DNA of 64,000 nucleotides from an uncultured virus (IMG/VR IMGVR_UViG_3300009152_000029) (Duplodnaviria; Heunggongvirae; Uroviricota; Caudoviricetes): IMG/VR virus record IMGVR_UViG_3300009152_000029; one strand, 5' to 3'. The position numbers and the translations under genes are program-made. The notes below the pieces were generated by a model. That model saw only the letters and a list, made by a program, of their open reading frames with translations, searched no databases and was not told the DNA's origin. Shown one piece after another: positions 57,371 through 64,000 of this stretch (position 1 is its first letter; each line of letters starts with the position of its first letter).

Positions 57371-57736
57371 ATGAATAATGTTTTTGCTATCTTAGGCTGT
57401 TTGTGTATTGTTTTATCGCCAGTAGAATCTTTTTCTCGGCCTGCTCAGCCAATCTTTCAAGTTGACGAAAAACCAAAAAAAGAAATTTTGATTAGTTTAA
57501 ATTCAACATATTACAGAAATGCCAAGGAAGTTATTGAAGGTTTTTTCAAGCAAGCTAATATAAGAAATAAATATATTGACAGTTCATTGGATAAGCTAGA
57601 TAAGAAGAATTTCAGTTTTGTTGATTTTACTCTTGACGAAGCAATAGGGTACTTATCATCAAAATACAATGTAACATTTACTGTCGAAACAATTGGCAAG
57701 AAAAAAATATATAACGTGGAGCCTAAGAAAAAATGA
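57371..57736 (+). CDS. Exported protein, STN/secretin N0-like
   Basis: Signal peptide; EVIEGFFKQANI...FSFVDFTLDEAIGYL resembles the neighbouring STN-like domain. Confidence 0.5.
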   Translation: MNNVFAILGCLCIVLSPVESFSRPAQPIFQVDEKPKKEILISLNSTYYRNAKEVIEGFFKQANIRNKYIDSSLDKLDKKNFSFVDFTLDEAIGYLSSKYNVTFTVETIGKKKIYNVEPKKK

Positions 57737-58389
57737 AAAAGTTATTTGCTCTCTTAGTCCTTTTAGTGATTTGTTCAGTCTCTTTTGCGCAATCTAATAT
57801 AACAATGGAGTTAAAAGATGCGCCAGTAAGAACAAGCTTGGAAATGATTTTTAAACAAGCTGGAATCAAAAGTTATGTCATTGAAAACTCTGTGTCTGGT
57901 GTAATTTCAATGAATCTTTCAGAACAACCATTTGAAAATGCTCTCAAATTAGTTATGAGAGCAAATACAATTCCCCTTACATATACTAAAGAAAATGATG
58001 TTTATATTGTAAAGAGTAGAAAAATAGTAATAGGACCAAACCCAGAGCCTACTAATTATTCTGACTTAATTATAGAAACAAAAACTTCTAGAGCTTGGGA
58101 AAAAATTCATTTAAATTATATAGATCCATTTGATTTACAAGCAGTTTTGGGTAATATATTATTTATTAATCAATTTAGTAGATATACAGGTGGAATGAAT
58201 GGAATGGGCACAGGTGGCTTTGGTGGGGCTGGCGGTTTTGGGAACGGCGCTATGGGAGGCAATGGAGGCTTTGGAATGGGCGCTGGTAACGGAATGGGCG
58301 GAGGAGCAATGGGGGGCTTTGGCGGTATGATGGGAAGTCAAGGTGGATTCTCTGGTAATGGTGGATTTGGCGGAGGAAGAAATTTCTAA
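57733..58389 (+). CDS. Exported secretin-N-domain-like protein with Gly-rich tail (no secretin barrel)
   Basis: Signal peptide (SFA/Q); ITMELKDAPVRTSLEMIF...VSGVISMNLSEQPFENALKLV...YTKENDVYIV (PilQ/GspD N0-like); KIHLNYIDP; GGFG/GGMG tail. Confidence 0.7.
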   Translation: MKKLFALLVLLVICSVSFAQSNITMELKDAPVRTSLEMIFKQAGIKSYVIENSVSGVISMNLSEQPFENALKLVMRANTIPLTYTKENDVYIVKSRKIVIGPNPEPTNYSDLIIETKTSRAWEKIHLNYIDPFDLQAVLGNILFINQFSRYTGGMNGMGTGGFGGAGGFGNGAMGGNGGFGMGAGNGMGGGAMGGFGGMMGSQGGFSGNGGFGGGRNF

Positions 58390-59229: not shown

Positions 59230-59676
59230 ATGTGGTACAGATATTCTCAAGCTCAGCCTTTACAAAATTTGACAACTACTTCTAATCCATCAACCATTTC
59301 AGGTGGTGGACAGGGTATAGAAATTTCTCAAGCAGATTTACCAAAGCTTCAGCAGTTCAAAACAACTGGTGCGCCTGTAACTGTTCGTGATGTTACTACT
59401 GGGAAAATGGTCAGTATAGTTCACGGAAATGTTGACCAAAATGGAAAGTTTTTTCTAAGTGGGCAGAATAATGATATGGGCACAGAAGAAAACTTTAATG
59501 AGTGGGCTGCTAGAAATGGTGTAAATCCGGGCAACTTTATTCTATCGTGCAAACAAGGCGCAGCAAATACAAGCGCATTTAATAACTTAACTTCTTATCA
59601 GGGTGTTTTACAATTACAATGGAGTAATCAACCAAATGAAAGAGGTAATTACAATGTGTTTGTCCAGGGTGGATAA
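59230..59676 (+). CDS. Hypothetical protein with MWYRYSQ leader
   Basis: 148 aa; contains VHG and LSC motifs; preceded by AAGG-N18-GAA. Confidence 0.6.
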   Translation: MWYRYSQAQPLQNLTTTSNPSTISGGGQGIEISQADLPKLQQFKTTGAPVTVRDVTTGKMVSIVHGNVDQNGKFFLSGQNNDMGTEENFNEWAARNGVNPGNFILSCKQGAANTSAFNNLTSYQGVLQLQWSNQPNERGNYNVFVQGG

Positions 59677-60341
59677 TGTTTATAACTAATACTGTAATAC
59701 TTTCATCAAAAAAAGAAAAAGTAGAATCAAACGGTTTTGAATTCCAAAAATTACCATACGAATATTCTTTTCTAGAACCTGTAATTGACGCAGAAACAAT
59801 GAAAATTCATCACACAAAGCATCAGAAAAAATATTTTGATAATATGATGAGCATTGTTGATGAAAACTCAAAATTACAAAAGAATTCATTAGTCGAATTA
59901 ATGTCAGATTTAAATAAGATTCCAGCAAAAGATAGAGAAAAGTTTAAGAATAATGCTGGTGGATATTTCAATCATTCTTTCTTCTGGAATGTAATGACTA
60001 CTGAAAAGCCTGTCTACTCTGGCGCTATAAAAAATCTTATTGACAAGAAGTTTGGGTCACTTGATAAGTTTAAAATAGAATTTATCAAAACAGGAATGGA
60101 TCATTTTGGTTCTGGTTGGGTTTGGTTATGCACTGAAGATGGTAGAAATCTAAAACTGTCTTCAATGGCAAATCAAAACAATCCATATATAGAAGAATGC
60201 GGCAAACCATTAATCGGATGTGATTTATGGGAACACGCTTACTATTTAAAATATCAAAATGATAGAGAAAAATATTTAAAAAAATGGGTTAACTTAATTA
60301 ATTGGGATTTTGTCAATGAAACCTTGGAGAGTTACAAATGA
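59676..60341 (+). CDS. sodA: Fe/Mn superoxide dismutase (Mn-type signature)
   Basis: LPY...LEP.ID.ETM.IHHTKH, NNAGGYFNHSFFW, FGSGWVWL, NQ, DLWEHAYY. Confidence 0.92.
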   Translation: MFITNTVILSSKKEKVESNGFEFQKLPYEYSFLEPVIDAETMKIHHTKHQKKYFDNMMSIVDENSKLQKNSLVELMSDLNKIPAKDREKFKNNAGGYFNHSFFWNVMTTEKPVYSGAIKNLIDKKFGSLDKFKIEFIKTGMDHFGSGWVWLCTEDGRNLKLSSMANQNNPYIEECGKPLIGCDLWEHAYYLKYQNDREKYLKKWVNLINWDFVNETLESYK

Positions 60342-60712
60342 ATATAATTACAAATCTTTTAACAATACAGAATCAGTTTAGAGTTTATCATTGGCAAACA
60401 CAAAAGAAGCCAGGTTCTTTTGCTCAACACGAGGCATTCGGAAAAGCTTATGAAGCACTTGACCCACTTATTGATGATTTCATAGAAGTTTTTCAAGGTA
60501 AGAATGGCGCTTTGATGGGCAAGAATGGTTTTGTTGTAAATCTTGAAAATTTATCTGATGATTACAATGTATTTATCGATGAAGCAGTTGAATATTTTAT
60601 AAATTATCTTCCTCAATCATTAGACTCAAATTCTGATACTGATTTATTAAATATCAAAGATGAAATGCTTGCTATCTTAAATCAGACAAAATATCGTTTG
60701 AAAATGATGTAA
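60338..60712 (+). CDS. Ferritin/Dps-like four-helix protein (DUF5856 type)
   Basis: HWQT...SFAQHEAFGKAYE.L..LID.FIE..QGK...DLLNIKDEML..LNQTKY.L. Confidence 0.75.
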   Translation: MNIITNLLTIQNQFRVYHWQTQKKPGSFAQHEAFGKAYEALDPLIDDFIEVFQGKNGALMGKNGFVVNLENLSDDYNVFIDEAVEYFINYLPQSLDSNSDTDLLNIKDEMLAILNQTKYRLKMM

Positions 60713-60957
60713 TGGATTATTCAGACTCAGACGGCTACAAAGCAATGGTGGCTAGAAAACTCACTGAATTAGAATTATCTAGAAAAGATATGGTGAAGAG
60801 TTTAGATATCTGTTTGTTGATGAGCGTTGAACAGCTTGAAAAAATAGAAGAAAACCTTTCCAAAAAACAGCGTAAAACTAAATTTGGAAAGGCTATCAAT
60901 ATGATTATTGGGATAAAGAAAGATTACTTATATCCACAGCCACCACAAGAGTCATAA
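60712..60957 (+). CDS. Hypothetical protein
   Basis: 81 aa, TAATG-coupled. Confidence 0.5.
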   Translation: MDYSDSDGYKAMVARKLTELELSRKDMVKSLDICLLMSVEQLEKIEENLSKKQRKTKFGKAINMIIGIKKDYLYPQPPQES

Positions 60958-61295
60958 GTTTCTCCGTCAACTGAAAAAGAACTGCCACAACCACAACTCT
61001 TTTCAGCATTAGGATTTTCAATCTTGAATCCTGACATCAATCCATCTTCTTTGTAGCATATAATTGCACCATCAAGATATTTTGCTGATTTTGCATCAAC
61101 TACAATTTTGATATCATTGTCATAAACAATAATGTCGTCAATTTCCGGCTCACCTTCAGAGACAGCCAATCCGTATTGAAGCCCAGAGCAACCTCCTCCA
61201 GCTACATAAAAGTAGAGATGTGGATCATCTGTTTCAATTTGAGATATAGAATCTTTCACTAATTCGGCTGCTTTGTCTGTAATTTTAATATTCAT
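60924..61295 (-). CDS. A-type Fe-S carrier (IscA/ErpA/HesB family)
   Basis: ITDKAA, GGGCSGLQY, NPNAEKSCGCGSSF. Confidence 0.92.
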   Translation of the reverse strand: MNIKITDKAAELVKDSISQIETDDPHLYFYVAGGGCSGLQYGLAVSEGEPEIDDIIVYDNDIKIVVDAKSAKYLDGAIICYKEDGLMSGFKIENPNAEKSCGCGSSFSVDGETYDSCGGCGYK

Positions 61296-61992
61296 ATGTT
61301 AAGTTTCCATCATTCTTAGTGTATGTCTTATATTTTTCTAATCTTGTAAATTTACCTGTGTCAGAATTAAATGTAATTCTTTCAATATACTTCAATGGAA
61401 CTTTGGATTTGAGTTCCTTAAATTTATTTCCATCAGCATCAGATGAAATTTCTTCTTTATATTGAAGTCCGTAAATTTCAGGATTCAACTTCCAATAAAT
61501 AAACCTTGAGGGAAAAGTTTTATTATTCATACATTCCATTGCTTCTTCTAAAGGAAAGAGGAAATGATAAAATTCAAATATATCTTCTGGTTTTGAAAGT
61601 CTATGTCCAGTGTATATTGAAGTTTGAGTTATTTTTGAATAATCTAAAACTTCCACACTTCCTGTAACATCAGTCTTAAAAATAGAGCTAAATTGTTCTA
61701 AGCCTTTCTTTTTCAATAGGTTTGGCTCCCATTTGAGATTCCAAACCATATCAAACAACTTAGTACCCTTGCATTCACTCTCACTTGCTCGGACAAACTT
61801 ATCATTTGTACGAGTTATAATGTCACCAAAAATATATTTTTCAGTCAAGTCAAGTGTGTATTCAGGCGCAATTTCTTTAAATAAATACAGGCAAATAATT
61901 TTTGTGCAATATTTACCTGCTACATCAAGTTGAGCCTGAGAGTATTTGTTGCTGGTTTTTCTGGCATAATCTTTACGAACATAAGAATTCAT
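61285..61992 (-). CDS. Hypothetical protein, possible PD-(D/E)xK nuclease fold
   Basis: GDII...ESECKG spacing; weak. Confidence 0.4.
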   Translation of the reverse strand: MNSYVRKDYARKTSNKYSQAQLDVAGKYCTKIICLYLFKEIAPEYTLDLTEKYIFGDIITRTNDKFVRASESECKGTKLFDMVWNLKWEPNLLKKKGLEQFSSIFKTDVTGSVEVLDYSKITQTSIYTGHRLSKPEDIFEFYHFLFPLEEAMECMNNKTFPSRFIYWKLNPEIYGLQYKEEISSDADGNKFKELKSKVPLKYIERITFNSDTGKFTRLEKYKTYTKNDGNLTYEY

Positions 61993-62866
61993 AATCTATT
62001 CTCATTCCAATACAGTGAATTACAGGTCGAACAAGAGCAAGTCCCAATCCTTTATCATACAAGACTTCACCGCTAGTATCAGGCTCAGGAACTTCACTAT
62101 CTGTCAAAACAGTCAACCTACGCTTAGATTCTAACACAATTTTCTGTGCTAGATATAACCTACAAGCATAATGATTTTCAAGCTTCTGAAATTCTGAAAG
62201 TCTCTTACGAAATTCCTTATCTTCTTGCTCTGTAGTACCGATGCCATCAAAGAACTCGATATGCCAGTTTTCAGGGTGTTGTAAGGCTAAATCATAACGA
62301 TTAGGAATATCATCAATATATTGCTTGTCATCACTATTTGTGCTTTGAATATACATCTTGCCTGGAAAACTAGAAATATATTCTTTGATTGAAATAAGTT
62401 CGTGCTTTACTGCTTCGTGATATCCAATAAGCATATTTTCAAGTAATTTTTCAGCATCACGAATTTCTTCTTTTTCAAGGAATGACTCAAGCAGATATAA
62501 ATCATCAAGAGACGTAGCAAGATCTTTAATGAAATCTAAAGCTTCTTGTTGTGAAAGCAAGATTTGATTCTTGAAAGTAGTAAGTCTTGGAGCAATTACT
62601 TCAAAATGAGAAATTGACTTGATGATAATCTTAAAATATCCCCAAGCCATATGATTGATGTTTAAAAAACATTCGTGAATCAAATTGCCATCTGGACCAA
62701 AAACTTCAGTAGGAACAATTCCCATAAAAGAGTTTTGATTTGTATCAACTAATCCTAAGTTAGTTGATACTGTAGCTAATTCAAGAGCGCACTTGACAAT
62801 ATCTTGATTATCAGCAGTCCAAACAGCAATTCCAGCTTCTAATGCGTATTCTGGTGTTTTTTCCAT
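61973..62866 (-). CDS. Hypothetical acidic protein
   Basis: 297 aa ORF. Confidence 0.65.
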   Translation of the reverse strand: MEKTPEYALEAGIAVWTADNQDIVKCALELATVSTNLGLVDTNQNSFMGIVPTEVFGPDGNLIHECFLNINHMAWGYFKIIIKSISHFEVIAPRLTTFKNQILLSQQEALDFIKDLATSLDDLYLLESFLEKEEIRDAEKLLENMLIGYHEAVKHELISIKEYISSFPGKMYIQSTNSDDKQYIDDIPNRYDLALQHPENWHIEFFDGIGTTEQEDKEFRKRLSEFQKLENHYACRLYLAQKIVLESKRRLTVLTDSEVPEPDTSGEVLYDKGLGLALVRPVIHCIGMRIDYEFLCS

Positions 62867-62883
62867 AATACGTTCATTGTACC

Positions 62884-63351
62884 TTATAAAATGAAAGAAC
62901 CGGAAACAACTAATCTAGGGTCACTGAATTTATTAGAGTTTGGTAATAAATTATTATTATTTTCATAAGAAAATTTAAAATCACTCCATTTATTTTTGAG
63001 TACATAAGATGCAGAAAGTGATTTCTTATCTTCAACAAATCCTGGCATTTTTGTGTTCCCGGCAGAAAAATTGAACGTACCTATAGGTGACTTATAATTG
63101 TAACCCATCAGCAATTTGTGTTTTTCTGATGCAGATAAATCTGTGCCTTTATGCAAGCTATCAATGTTTACTTCAAAACCTGGAAGTTTTTTAAGTTTTA
63201 CATTTGCATTTAATAAAGTTTGATTAGGCTTTACAAAATATGATTCTGAATATGGATTTTGTGAAAAATTATTTCCAAATTGTTGGCCAAAACACAAAGA
63301 AGATAAAGATAATGTTAATAATAAAAATTGTGTTTTCATAATATTCCTCAA
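62884..63351 (-). CDS. Exported protein, possibly a small outer-membrane beta protein
   Basis: Signal peptide (probable start MKTQF after GAGGA); alternating aromatic strands MGYNY, LSASY, FKFSY, VSGSF. Confidence 0.5.
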   Translation of the reverse strand: MRNIMKTQFLLLTLSLSSLCFGQQFGNNFSQNPYSESYFVKPNQTLLNANVKLKKLPGFEVNIDSLHKGTDLSASEKHKLLMGYNYKSPIGTFNFSAGNTKMPGFVEDKKSLSASYVLKNKWSDFKFSYENNNNLLPNSNKFSDPRLVVSGSFIL

Positions 63352-63383
63352 ATTAATATTCTATGTTTTTATCATAGACACTT

Positions 63384-63421
63384 AAAAAAGTAAAGGGCTA
63401 GAATGAGATTATTTCTAGCCC
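63384..63421 (-). terminator. Terminator-like hairpin ending the candidate ncRNA
   Basis: Minus strand: GGGCTAGAA-ATAATCTCA-TTCTAGCCC-TTTACTTTTTT. Confidence 0.75.
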
Positions 63422-64000
63422 TGTAGTTTCGTTTGCAAGATTACTCTACTCGCAACTTATAGATTGCTTGCTTATCCACTTTACAGTCAAACTACACAAT
63501 CGCCTTTTTAAACTAGTGGCATTTCTAGTCTAATGTTAGTCTTTTAAACATAAGTGAAATTTTAGATGTTTAAGCATCTGCACTATGTTTTAAGTGTTTG
63601 TTGCATTACACTTTTTATTTTTTGATTGTTTACAACTAACACGAGATACGTCTATTTCTTGAGTGAATTATTGTTATCTTATCAACGGATTGCGATCTCT
63701 TTAATAATTCTATACCCGCTCTCTACAGAAGTGTGCGTATCTTGTTGCTCCTGGATAAGGAATACAACTCACTTCAATGCCTAATACTCCACAAAGTATT
63801 TAGACCTGATTTTGAGACTATAACGGAAGGAATTAAATTGTATCTTCCGCAAAACCTCTCATCATACTATAAAGCTCTTAATCGTGACTTCTCGAACCTT
63901 ATAATTACTCTTCATCTTTTAGGCTTCGATGATGCTGTGCTTGGCTTATATTCAGCGTATATAAGTCCGCTTTCATCTTATTCCATATTTCCAAGTTCTG
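63384..64000 (-). ncRNA. Candidate large structured ncRNA (GOLLD/ROOL class), probably 5'-truncated by the window
   Basis: ~620 nt with no ORF in the track, in an otherwise dense genome; at least nine consecutive helices; ends in a 9-bp hairpin plus U-tract on the minus strand. Confidence 0.6.

Follow-up and report, generated by a model that had tools for sequence, protein, structure and literature searches.

The longest intergenic stretch of a 64,000-nt window of phage DNA (the whole stretch that was analysed) very probably carries a stand-alone gene whose product, a highly structured, large non-coding RNA of ~755 nt, occurs in a clade of uncultivated freshwater giant phages and matches no described family. 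The conserved unit is non-coding, and its ~30 helices and two pseudoknots are kept by compensatory changes. The initial annotation of the window had proposed that its end contains the 3′ part of a large structured RNA, and this proposal holds: the RNA runs on the minus strand from ~64140, beyond the window end, down to 63386, so that the window contains its 3′ 615 nt (63386..64000, ~81% of ~755 nt), and the unit shows strong covariation, no conserved ORF, a promoter-like site and a terminator. These data support a new RNA class within a known, loosely defined kind, the giant ornate phage RNAs, among which GOLLD and ROOL are comparable in size and complexity.

Locus and relatives of the RNA

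The window corresponds to positions 231,585-295,584, read on the minus strand, of a 358,269-bp virus record (G000:C1:231585-295584; CheckV completeness 89; 33.7% G+C). A 3.7-kb locus, L001, comprises positions 230,085-233,785 of the contig, and a window coordinate equals 65501 minus the L001 position. When the sequence was read beyond the window, the ORF-free gap was found to extend from window position 63340 to ~64162, that is, past the window end. A crude ORF cover confirmed the earlier observation that this is the longest intergenic stretch of the window. The gap is flanked on its low side by the start of a minus-strand gene encoding a 151-aa protein with a signal peptide, and on its high side by the stop codon (64160-64162) of a minus-strand 138-aa gene.

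Relatives were sought in several collections. A sequencing-run index returned 14 freshwater or lake metagenome DNA runs that hold 82-100% of the locus words, together with six RNA runs that hold 9-14%. Comparison of three RNA runs and one DNA run with the locus revealed many diverged variants, and these were the source of conserved motifs. Scanning metagenome contigs with a 20-nt motif, a 20-mer common to the focal and B types, gave 49 homologous loci; a motif scan of viral contigs returned four that carry a syntenic relative, the “B” type, and a 315,852-bp viral record yielded a further type with another motif. Eleven loci returned by a first DNA pattern were discarded as chance matches, having in common only a 20-mer that lies inside an unrelated coding gene, and four of the eight loci from a second motif scan of viral contigs were chance matches as well. 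At 97% identity, the 51 sequences fall into 29 clusters. Twenty-three full-length representatives, 742-799 nt long and with pairwise identities of 55-96% (mean 74%), were aligned with MAFFT (alignment A2) and are referred to below as the 23 types.

The sole match among 185,579 species genomes was a 5.8-kb contig in a metagenome-assembled genome labelled Rickettsiaceae, which is probably a mis-binned phage fragment. A blastn search of the stretch against 50,697 GenBank phage records returned no match, and searches of viral contigs with the 138-, 151-, 297- and 507-aa proteins gave either no relatives or one irrelevant 31% match.

Base pairing and domain architecture

The RNAalifold consensus on alignment A2 comprises 139 pairs in 27 helices. 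Across the alignment 97.9% of 3183 cells pair, compared with 36.0-43.2% when the 3′ partners were slid by 1-3 columns, although the counts were made on the very MAFFT alignment from which the structure came, which by itself tends to favour the structure over slid controls. The initial annotation had named covariation among homologues as one of the checks, and compensatory substitutions were found well beyond the controls: 74 of the 139 pairs are changed on both sides and still pair in the 23 types, against 5-17 in the slid alignments and 36.3±3.9 in 500 column shuffles, of which none reached 74, with the reservation that many double changes stem from a single lineage of three B-clade sequences, i.e. 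one event, and that variable regions are poorly aligned. Likewise, 259 cells carry double changes versus 12-38 after sliding, and the covariation score is 0.323 versus 0.051-0.078. An all-column-pair scan, re-alignment of subregions and a second count added hairpins and two crossing helices to the consensus. Helix 17 of the RNAalifold consensus (columns 368-375 with 391-396) and helix 12 were set aside, since better alternatives exist, and a pairing of columns 399-405 with 713-719 was dropped because it clashes with two well-supported helices.

Nine helices had been read from the single sequence in the initial annotation, and all of them are present, each mapping onto a consensus helix: 63395-63421; 63423-29/63489-95; 63512-29; 63546-52/63584-90 with its inner stem; 63665-72/63703-10; 63728-33/63770-75; the hairpin 63781-63803; 63823-29/63844-50; and 63943-68. 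Folding of the 811-nt region was better than that of dinucleotide shuffles on both strands, with z scores of -4.4 (20 shuffles) and -3.2 (60 shuffles) on the minus strand and of -2.5, then -3.1 in a repeat run, on the plus strand. Single-sequence folding is thus suggestive only and does not decide the strand, and the decisive support is comparative. At four pairs of the alignment (108/123, 135/257, 153/169 and 309/348), every one of the 23 types has G·U or U·G. Since such pairs become A·C on the opposite strand, they place the RNA on the minus strand of the window, as do the promoter-like site and the U-run described below.

It is of practically negligible probability that the stretch is a decayed or unrecognised coding gene, for which the best candidate is a plus-strand frame from 63667 to 64023 that is free of stop codons for 118 codons in the focal phage. 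This frame is absent from L060, a relative 96% identical to the focal sequence, where no frame stays open for more than 61 codons. Nor do the 23 types conserve any reading frame: the longest open stretch shifts in strand, frame and place, ATG-initiated ORFs on the sense strand do not exceed 36 codons, and column variability by codon phase (0.142/0.156/0.149) reveals no 3-nt periodicity. Moreover, coding constraint would not be expected to produce the compensatory changes in 74 base pairs. A minus-strand frame that is open from 64000 to ~63905 had earlier been regarded as a possible gene end that would shorten the RNA; it is not one, as the stop codon of the upstream gene lies at 64160-64162 and the homologues conserve no frame.

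From the window end towards the 3′ end of the RNA, the minus strand first enters a multi-branch domain, whose closing helices (63907-10 with 64022-25 and 63914-19 with 64015-20) extend past the window end, and which contains GAUGA/UCAUC (63973-77 with 63928-32) and a hairpin at 63943-63968 (helix 2 of the second count) with seven of its nine pairs double-changed. It is followed by a hairpin UAAGGUUC/GAGCUUUA (63894-901 with 63870-77) that has a conserved 16-nt loop. The elements between 63870 and 64000 rest on consensus helices 7, 8, 11 and 13 together with the hairpin of the second count. Next comes a three-tier arm, consisting of a base GU.UGAU/AUCA.GU (63861-67 with 63804-10), a middle tier GAGGU/RUCUC (63854-58 with 63814-18) and a top GCGGAAG/CUUCCGU (63844-50 with 63823-29). 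Helices 14-16, which lie in this region, are 100%, 100% and 97% paired, and helix 16 is double-changed in seven of seven pairs. A hairpin with the conserved loop UYGUGRA occupies 63781-63803 (helix 4 of the second count; 80% paired in the unrefined alignment).

Two pseudoknots were recognised. In one (63728..63775), the helix GAAGUG/CACUUC (63770-75 with 63728-33) encloses a hairpin GUUGU..UCCU/AGGA..GCAAC (63744-63768) and crosses the long arm. This crossing helix (helix 5 of the second count) is 100% paired, and its two double-changed pairs occur in the B clade only; helix 18, in the same region, is 99% paired with six pairs double-changed. The invariant GUAGAGA is found at 63720-63726. The long arm itself (63644..63742) is closed by AGAUACGC/G.CGUAUCU (63735-42 with 63644-52), which corresponds to helix 19 and is 100% paired with four double-changed pairs. 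It contains the conserved CGCAA (63690-63694), and its apical part, here GAAUUAUU/AAUAAUUC (63703-10 with 63665-72), varies between lineages, with short, long and B-clade forms in subregion r3.

The other pseudoknot belongs to the domain at 63496..63642, in which ACAAUC/GAUUGU (63624-29 with 63496-501) crosses GUGUUAG/CUAACAU (63636-42 with 63533-39). The latter (helix 7 of the second count) is 100% paired and has two double-changed pairs, which arose in two different lineages. Inside this domain, for which the consensus has helices 20-22, lie a hairpin GUGU/ACAC (63608-11 with 63594-97) with the loop AUGCAACAA, a lineage-variable hairpin at 63546-63590 (re-aligned as subregion r4) and a hairpin ACUAG/CUAGU at 63512-63529. 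The 3′ domain (63423..63495) is enclosed by an outer helix GUAGUUU/AAACUAC (63489-95 with 63423-29), inside which follow ACU/AGU, GCAAG/CUUGC (63467-71 with 63435-39) and UCUAU/GUAGA (63459-63 with 63445-49), the last with an invariant UUGCGA in its loop. Its four helices, 23-26, are 100%, 94%, 100% and 99% paired, with 5, 0, 5 and 4 double-changed pairs.

Distant parts of the RNA also share three nearly invariant complementarities: UCUCUAC (64060-66, beyond the window) with GUAGAGA (63720-26), CGCAA (63690-94) with UUGCG (63451-55), and UCUCA of the terminator loop (63404-08) with UGAGA (63857-61). Only one pair among the three loop-loop pairings covaries: the terminator-loop pairing is 99% paired with one double change from G-C to U-A, and it overlaps nucleotides of two nested helices. 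Apart from a weak 2-bp pairing of the ends, the alignment contains no covarying helix that joins the 5′ and 3′ ends.

This arrangement bears on the possibility that a single transcription unit is cut into several smaller functional RNAs, an operon of domains. Most covarying helices are local and fall into about ten consecutive domains, distant domains are linked only by the invariant, non-covarying complementarities, and the contigs from RNA libraries are fragmentary, the longest being 441 nt. Against such cutting, the two pseudoknots and the arm 63735-42/63644-52 tie neighbouring domains together, domain order and total length (742-799 nt) are constant in 23 of 23 types, and fragmentation of contigs is expected where many strain variants mix. 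We therefore consider an operon of domains decidedly improbable and treat the ~755-nt unit as one RNA.

Promoter-like site, terminator and genomic slot

On the 5′ side, a promoter-like site of the sigma-70 type lies on the minus strand just beyond the window. When the window numbering is continued past 64000, its TATAAT occupies 64147-64152 and its TGGAAA 64169-64174; this TGGAAA-16-TATAAT arrangement of the focal phage amounts to 10 of 12 matches. Among the 23 types, an exact TATAAT stands 34-49 nt 5′ of the invariant block CGGUGGCUUGAC in 19 and a version with one mismatch in the remaining four, and it is located within the end of the upstream gene or just past it. Four of the types have a perfect TTGACA with a 16-nt spacer.

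On the 3′ side, the minus strand carries an intrinsic terminator (63385..63421) composed of a 9-bp stem GGGCUAGAA/UUCUAGCCC (63413-63421 and 63395-63403), a conserved loop AUAAUCUCA (63404-63412) and a U-run UUUACUUUUUU. The G+C-rich stem-loop with a U-run directly after it was read by eye from the sequence; an automated terminator scan missed the hairpin because its 9-nt loop exceeds the scanned range of 3-8. The stem (helix 27) is present in all 23 types, with 96% of cells paired and eight of nine pairs changed on both sides, and the loop, WUAAUCUCA, stays nearly constant across the family while the stem covaries. A T-rich run follows the stem in 21 of the 23 types; the aligned rows of L022 and L057 stop seven bases past the stem. 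The ends of the transcript are accordingly putative ones, placed from the promoter-like site and the terminator.

Contigs from all three lake RNA runs examined, which belong to three studies, cover the stretch, at L001 positions 1376-1901, 1419-1986 and, in pieces, over 1547-2073. Together they span L001 1376-2073, i.e. window 64125-63428, and they show neither the ends, the strand nor the level of the transcript. They have no common stopping place, which gives no hint of where the transcript ends. No contig covers the flanking genes in runs X16 and X18, a kind of measure that cannot rank genes, and in run X15 the contig word depth is 310-481 on the RNA against at most 35 on the flanks, which likewise cannot rank expression. 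Run X15 also contains three “joints”, with skips of 76, 88 and 266 nt at 85% likeness, of which two have sides of only ~30 nt. They were rejected as RNA processing and are read as diverged relatives.

The genomic slot was compared over 24 loci. Of these, 19 have a homologue of the 138-aa gene upstream and 22 have a homologue of a 297-aa gene downstream (the two without it are short loci), and the gene directly downstream is common to only five. In two loci the upstream gene is displaced by ~0.7 kb and the RNA is retained. The RNA is better conserved than either neighbouring protein: in the B clade the 138-aa and 297-aa proteins are 23-25% and 42% identical to the focal ones, versus 57-59% nucleotide identity plus long invariant blocks in the RNA.

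These observations were weighed against a long untranslated region acting in cis, which could be the 3′ UTR of the 138-aa gene or a leader or attenuator for the genes past the terminator. One RNA-library contig, record 10 of run X15 (L001 964-1496), reaches from the upstream gene across the initial 130 nt of the stretch, and the terminator stands only ~45 nt before the next start codon, as such a region would have it. A UTR is nevertheless very improbable, as a TATAAT-like site precedes the 5′ block at a near-constant distance in 23 of 23 types, the directly downstream gene is shared by only 5 of 24 loci, the RNA persists where the upstream gene is displaced by ~0.7 kb, and it is conserved better than either neighbour. 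The leaders known to us are also far smaller and have far fewer covarying helices than the focal RNA. A stand-alone gene remains the preferred reading.

Relation to known RNAs and possible roles

To our knowledge, only a handful of RNAs from bacteria or phages combine a length above 500 nt with an ornate conserved fold, nearly all of them without a resolved function. None of the 4,227 Rfam families is detectably related to the focal RNA. Rfam 15 at gathering thresholds gave no match in the window, and at E<=10 on the whole 3.7-kb locus it gave noise only, with no GOLLD, ROOL or OLE. Three weak matches within the stretch all fall on the terminal hairpin, namely VrrA (22.8 bits, against 50), mir-458 and IMES-1 (16.9, against 81). 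In eight homologous loci spanning the diversity of the family, four weak matches at E<=5 were obtained, none of them inside the RNA. The covariance models of OLE, RNase P, tmRNA, group I and II introns, 6S and SRP matched neither the window, the locus nor the eight homologues. The scan proposed earlier, including sequence beyond 64000, thus places no family on the locus or its eight homologues, and of the two options offered in the initial annotation, a divergent GOLLD-like member or a new class, it is the latter that agrees with the data.

The GOLLD-like option had been raised from a remembered 3′ end, and there are real likenesses. According to the available part of PMC12286853, GOLLD RNAs are phage-encoded, come from lake and aquatic metagenomes, measure ~750-800 nt, have many helices and pseudoknots and contain an internal region that varies between homologues, and neither GOLLD nor the focal RNA has been assigned a function. 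A member of GOLLD (or of ROOL or OLE) that has diverged too much from the Rfam seed sequences to be scored would accordingly share with the focal RNA its ~755 nt, phage origin, lake habitat and ornate multi-domain pseudoknotted fold (PMC12286853, in the part available). The difference lies in the covariance models, which give no match at E<=10 on the locus or at E<=5 on the eight homologous loci, and in the surroundings of the gene. GOLLD and ROOL are often near tRNA islands, as stated in the accessible portion of that paper (PMC12286853). Neighbouring tRNAs, which had been suggested as a further check, are not seen here: ARAGORN detects no tRNA or tmRNA in the 64-kb window and no tmRNA in the whole genome, and its nine tRNA genes at 133-137 kb and 172-176 kb, to which Rfam adds a tenth, all lie >55 kb from the RNA at contig 231.4-232.2 kb. 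Membership of GOLLD, ROOL or OLE is thus scarcely likely.

ROOL, the rumen-originating, ornate, large RNA, resembles the focal RNA in being a phage or prophage RNA with kissing-loop-type complementarities and apparently no protein partner, as far as the available text of PMC12286853 describes it. The focal RNA differs from ROOL in being longer, in its habitat, in its distance from tRNA islands and in giving no covariance-model match.

IMES-1 to IMES-4 are environmental RNAs known mainly from marine metatranscriptomes. Like them, the focal RNA is known only from environmental sequence and occurs in environmental RNA libraries; it differs in being several times larger and in having a known carrier, a giant phage, and the IMES-1 signal is limited to the terminator hairpin. 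A structured-RNA survey of IMG/VR (Fremin et al. 2023, PMC10690425) used covariation to mine viral contigs of the same kind and reported 8,495 candidates averaging 67 nt; the part of that article available describes no 750-nt unit, and a fragment of the focal RNA could be among its candidates. A full-text literature search returned no description of the focal RNA, and phages are absent from the main text, as far as available, of a 2026 preprint on non-coding sequence space.

For the course of events in the infected cell we propose that host RNA polymerase would transcribe the RNA from the consensus-like promoter and stop at the hairpin. The transcript would then fold into a chain of about ten domains, which may be tied together by the pseudoknots and by the invariant loop pairs UCUCUAC/GUAGAGA, CGCAA/UUGCG and, at the terminator, UCUCA/UGAGA, and it would act in trans, as RNA. 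That the RNA is more conserved than the adjacent proteins argues for a central role in infection.

As a tentative reading, for which we would claim somewhat less than an even chance, the RNA may be abundant and architectural, of the same type as GOLLD and ROOL, with loop-loop contacts that would build a compact particle or a homo-multimer. We propose an architectural, self-assembling RNA because the high share of invariant nucleotides in its loops and junctions, its freely varying hairpin and its complementary invariant loops recall GOLLD and ROOL. In those families several “tertiary” pairings proved to be bridges between subunits, by covariation and cryo-EM (PMC12286853, in the portion available). 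A homo-oligomeric, RNA-only nanocage is a trait of GOLLD and ROOL; the one feature of the focal RNA that bears on it is its set of invariant complementary loop pairs. The bolder form of the proposal, that the family represents a third independent lineage of giant phage RNAs which would assemble without protein into a symmetric multimer or cage, with the loop pairs as inter-molecular bridges, seems to us rather unlikely. A role in binding a host or phage protein, as its decoy or scaffold, is conceivable but unlikely, and a ribozyme appears improbable. A CsrB-like sponge was rejected by eye, the ~8 GGA triplets being about what base composition leads one to expect in a rough estimate.

The 23 full-length types at 55-96% identity are sufficient for a covariation-grade secondary structure, including the two pseudoknots, and for the choice of cryo-EM constructs. 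Should the RNA multimerise like GOLLD and ROOL, RNA-only assemblies would be a general strategy of large phages, and should a third cage lineage prove true, RNA-only compartments would have been invented repeatedly by large phages rather than being peculiar to two families. If it does not multimerise, it would be a new fold with a new job. Either reading is directly testable in vitro without a host.

The RNA occupies a fixed genomic slot in its clade of giant lake phages, on contigs of up to 358 kb. A link of these phages to the freshwater giant phages with bS21 (PMC9723584) fails, as the record contains no S21 gene, and a search for the T4-type capsid protein Gp23 gave no match, its control being silent everywhere too. 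The proteins encoded next to the RNA have no family in Pfam or PHROG, and the Atlas gave no useful lead. The 297-aa protein has no sequence match in the PDB, and the AlphaFold models of both neighbours (pLDDT 84.2 each) gave no Foldseek match at E<=0.001. With VIA-align, residues 1-120 of the 297-aa protein reached best Z scores of 7.0-7.4, which lie within the background, against Mediator subunits and the C-terminal domain of T4 MotA, the likeness of this N-terminal domain to the MotA domain being at background level (Z 7.0-7.1). Two JGI records label homologues of the 297-aa protein as “predicted nucleic acid-binding protein”.

Sequence and genes flanking the RNA

Immediately 3' of the terminator of the RNA, a conserved block consisting of TTTTAAGGAACTTT, about 15 nt and TAGTATA is present in many relatives (alignment columns ~890-940), occupying window 63340-63384 and the homologous positions in these relatives, and it may serve as the promoter of the variable downstream gene encoding a secreted protein. 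The gene encoding the 297-aa protein (window 61976-62866, minus strand) is always located after the RNA. We found 144 environmental homologues of this protein, two of which carry the JGI name "predicted nucleic acid-binding protein". The AlphaFold model of the 297-aa protein has a pLDDT of 84.2, and when its N-terminal alpha/beta domain was aligned as a model with the C-terminal DNA-binding domain of T4 MotA, the resulting Z of 7.0-7.1 was within background.

Within a few kb of the RNA, three auxiliary-type genes are present (window 59676-61295), encoding a Fe/Mn superoxide dismutase with Sod_Fe_N and Sod_Fe_C (window 59676-60341, plus strand), a HesB/IscA-type protein (PF01521) for the biosynthesis of Fe-S clusters (window 60924-61295, minus strand) and a DUF5856 protein (window 60338-60712, plus strand). 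In addition, the gene at window 57733-58389 (plus strand) encodes a protein that looks secreted and has a long tail rich in glycine (GGFGGAGGFGNGAMGGNGGFG...); no Pfam family was found for this protein.

A copy of the RNA in a metagenome-assembled genome

The RNA of this phage is also carried by the 5.8-kb contig JAIOYD010000108.1 (locus L071), which comes from a MAG labelled Rickettsiaceae, and this copy shows 80% identity over 752 nt. The contig is probably a low-G+C phage fragment that was binned by composition, rather than evidence for host identity.

Other regions of the phage record

Two ORF-free gaps in the whole phage record (contig coordinates G000:C1) are longer than that of the RNA, namely G000:C1:590-2028 (1,439 nt) and G000:C1:191560-192767 (1,208 nt), and these may contain additional non-coding elements or an origin. 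An Rfam scan (E<=0.1) gave no match in these two gaps or in three other gaps; the only matches, all to tRNA, were in the two tRNA regions included in the scan. The window and the genome sequence are identical except for a single base at window 34737.

Past the window end, five out of five consecutive plus-strand genes at G000:C1:225735-229228 (extended window ~66357-69850) encode proteins starting with MWYR or MWYK (MWYRTAIDL, MWYRKAIDT, MWYRESGK, MWYREAVT and MWYKFAAY), which look like a tandem paralogous family sharing a conserved N-terminal tag.
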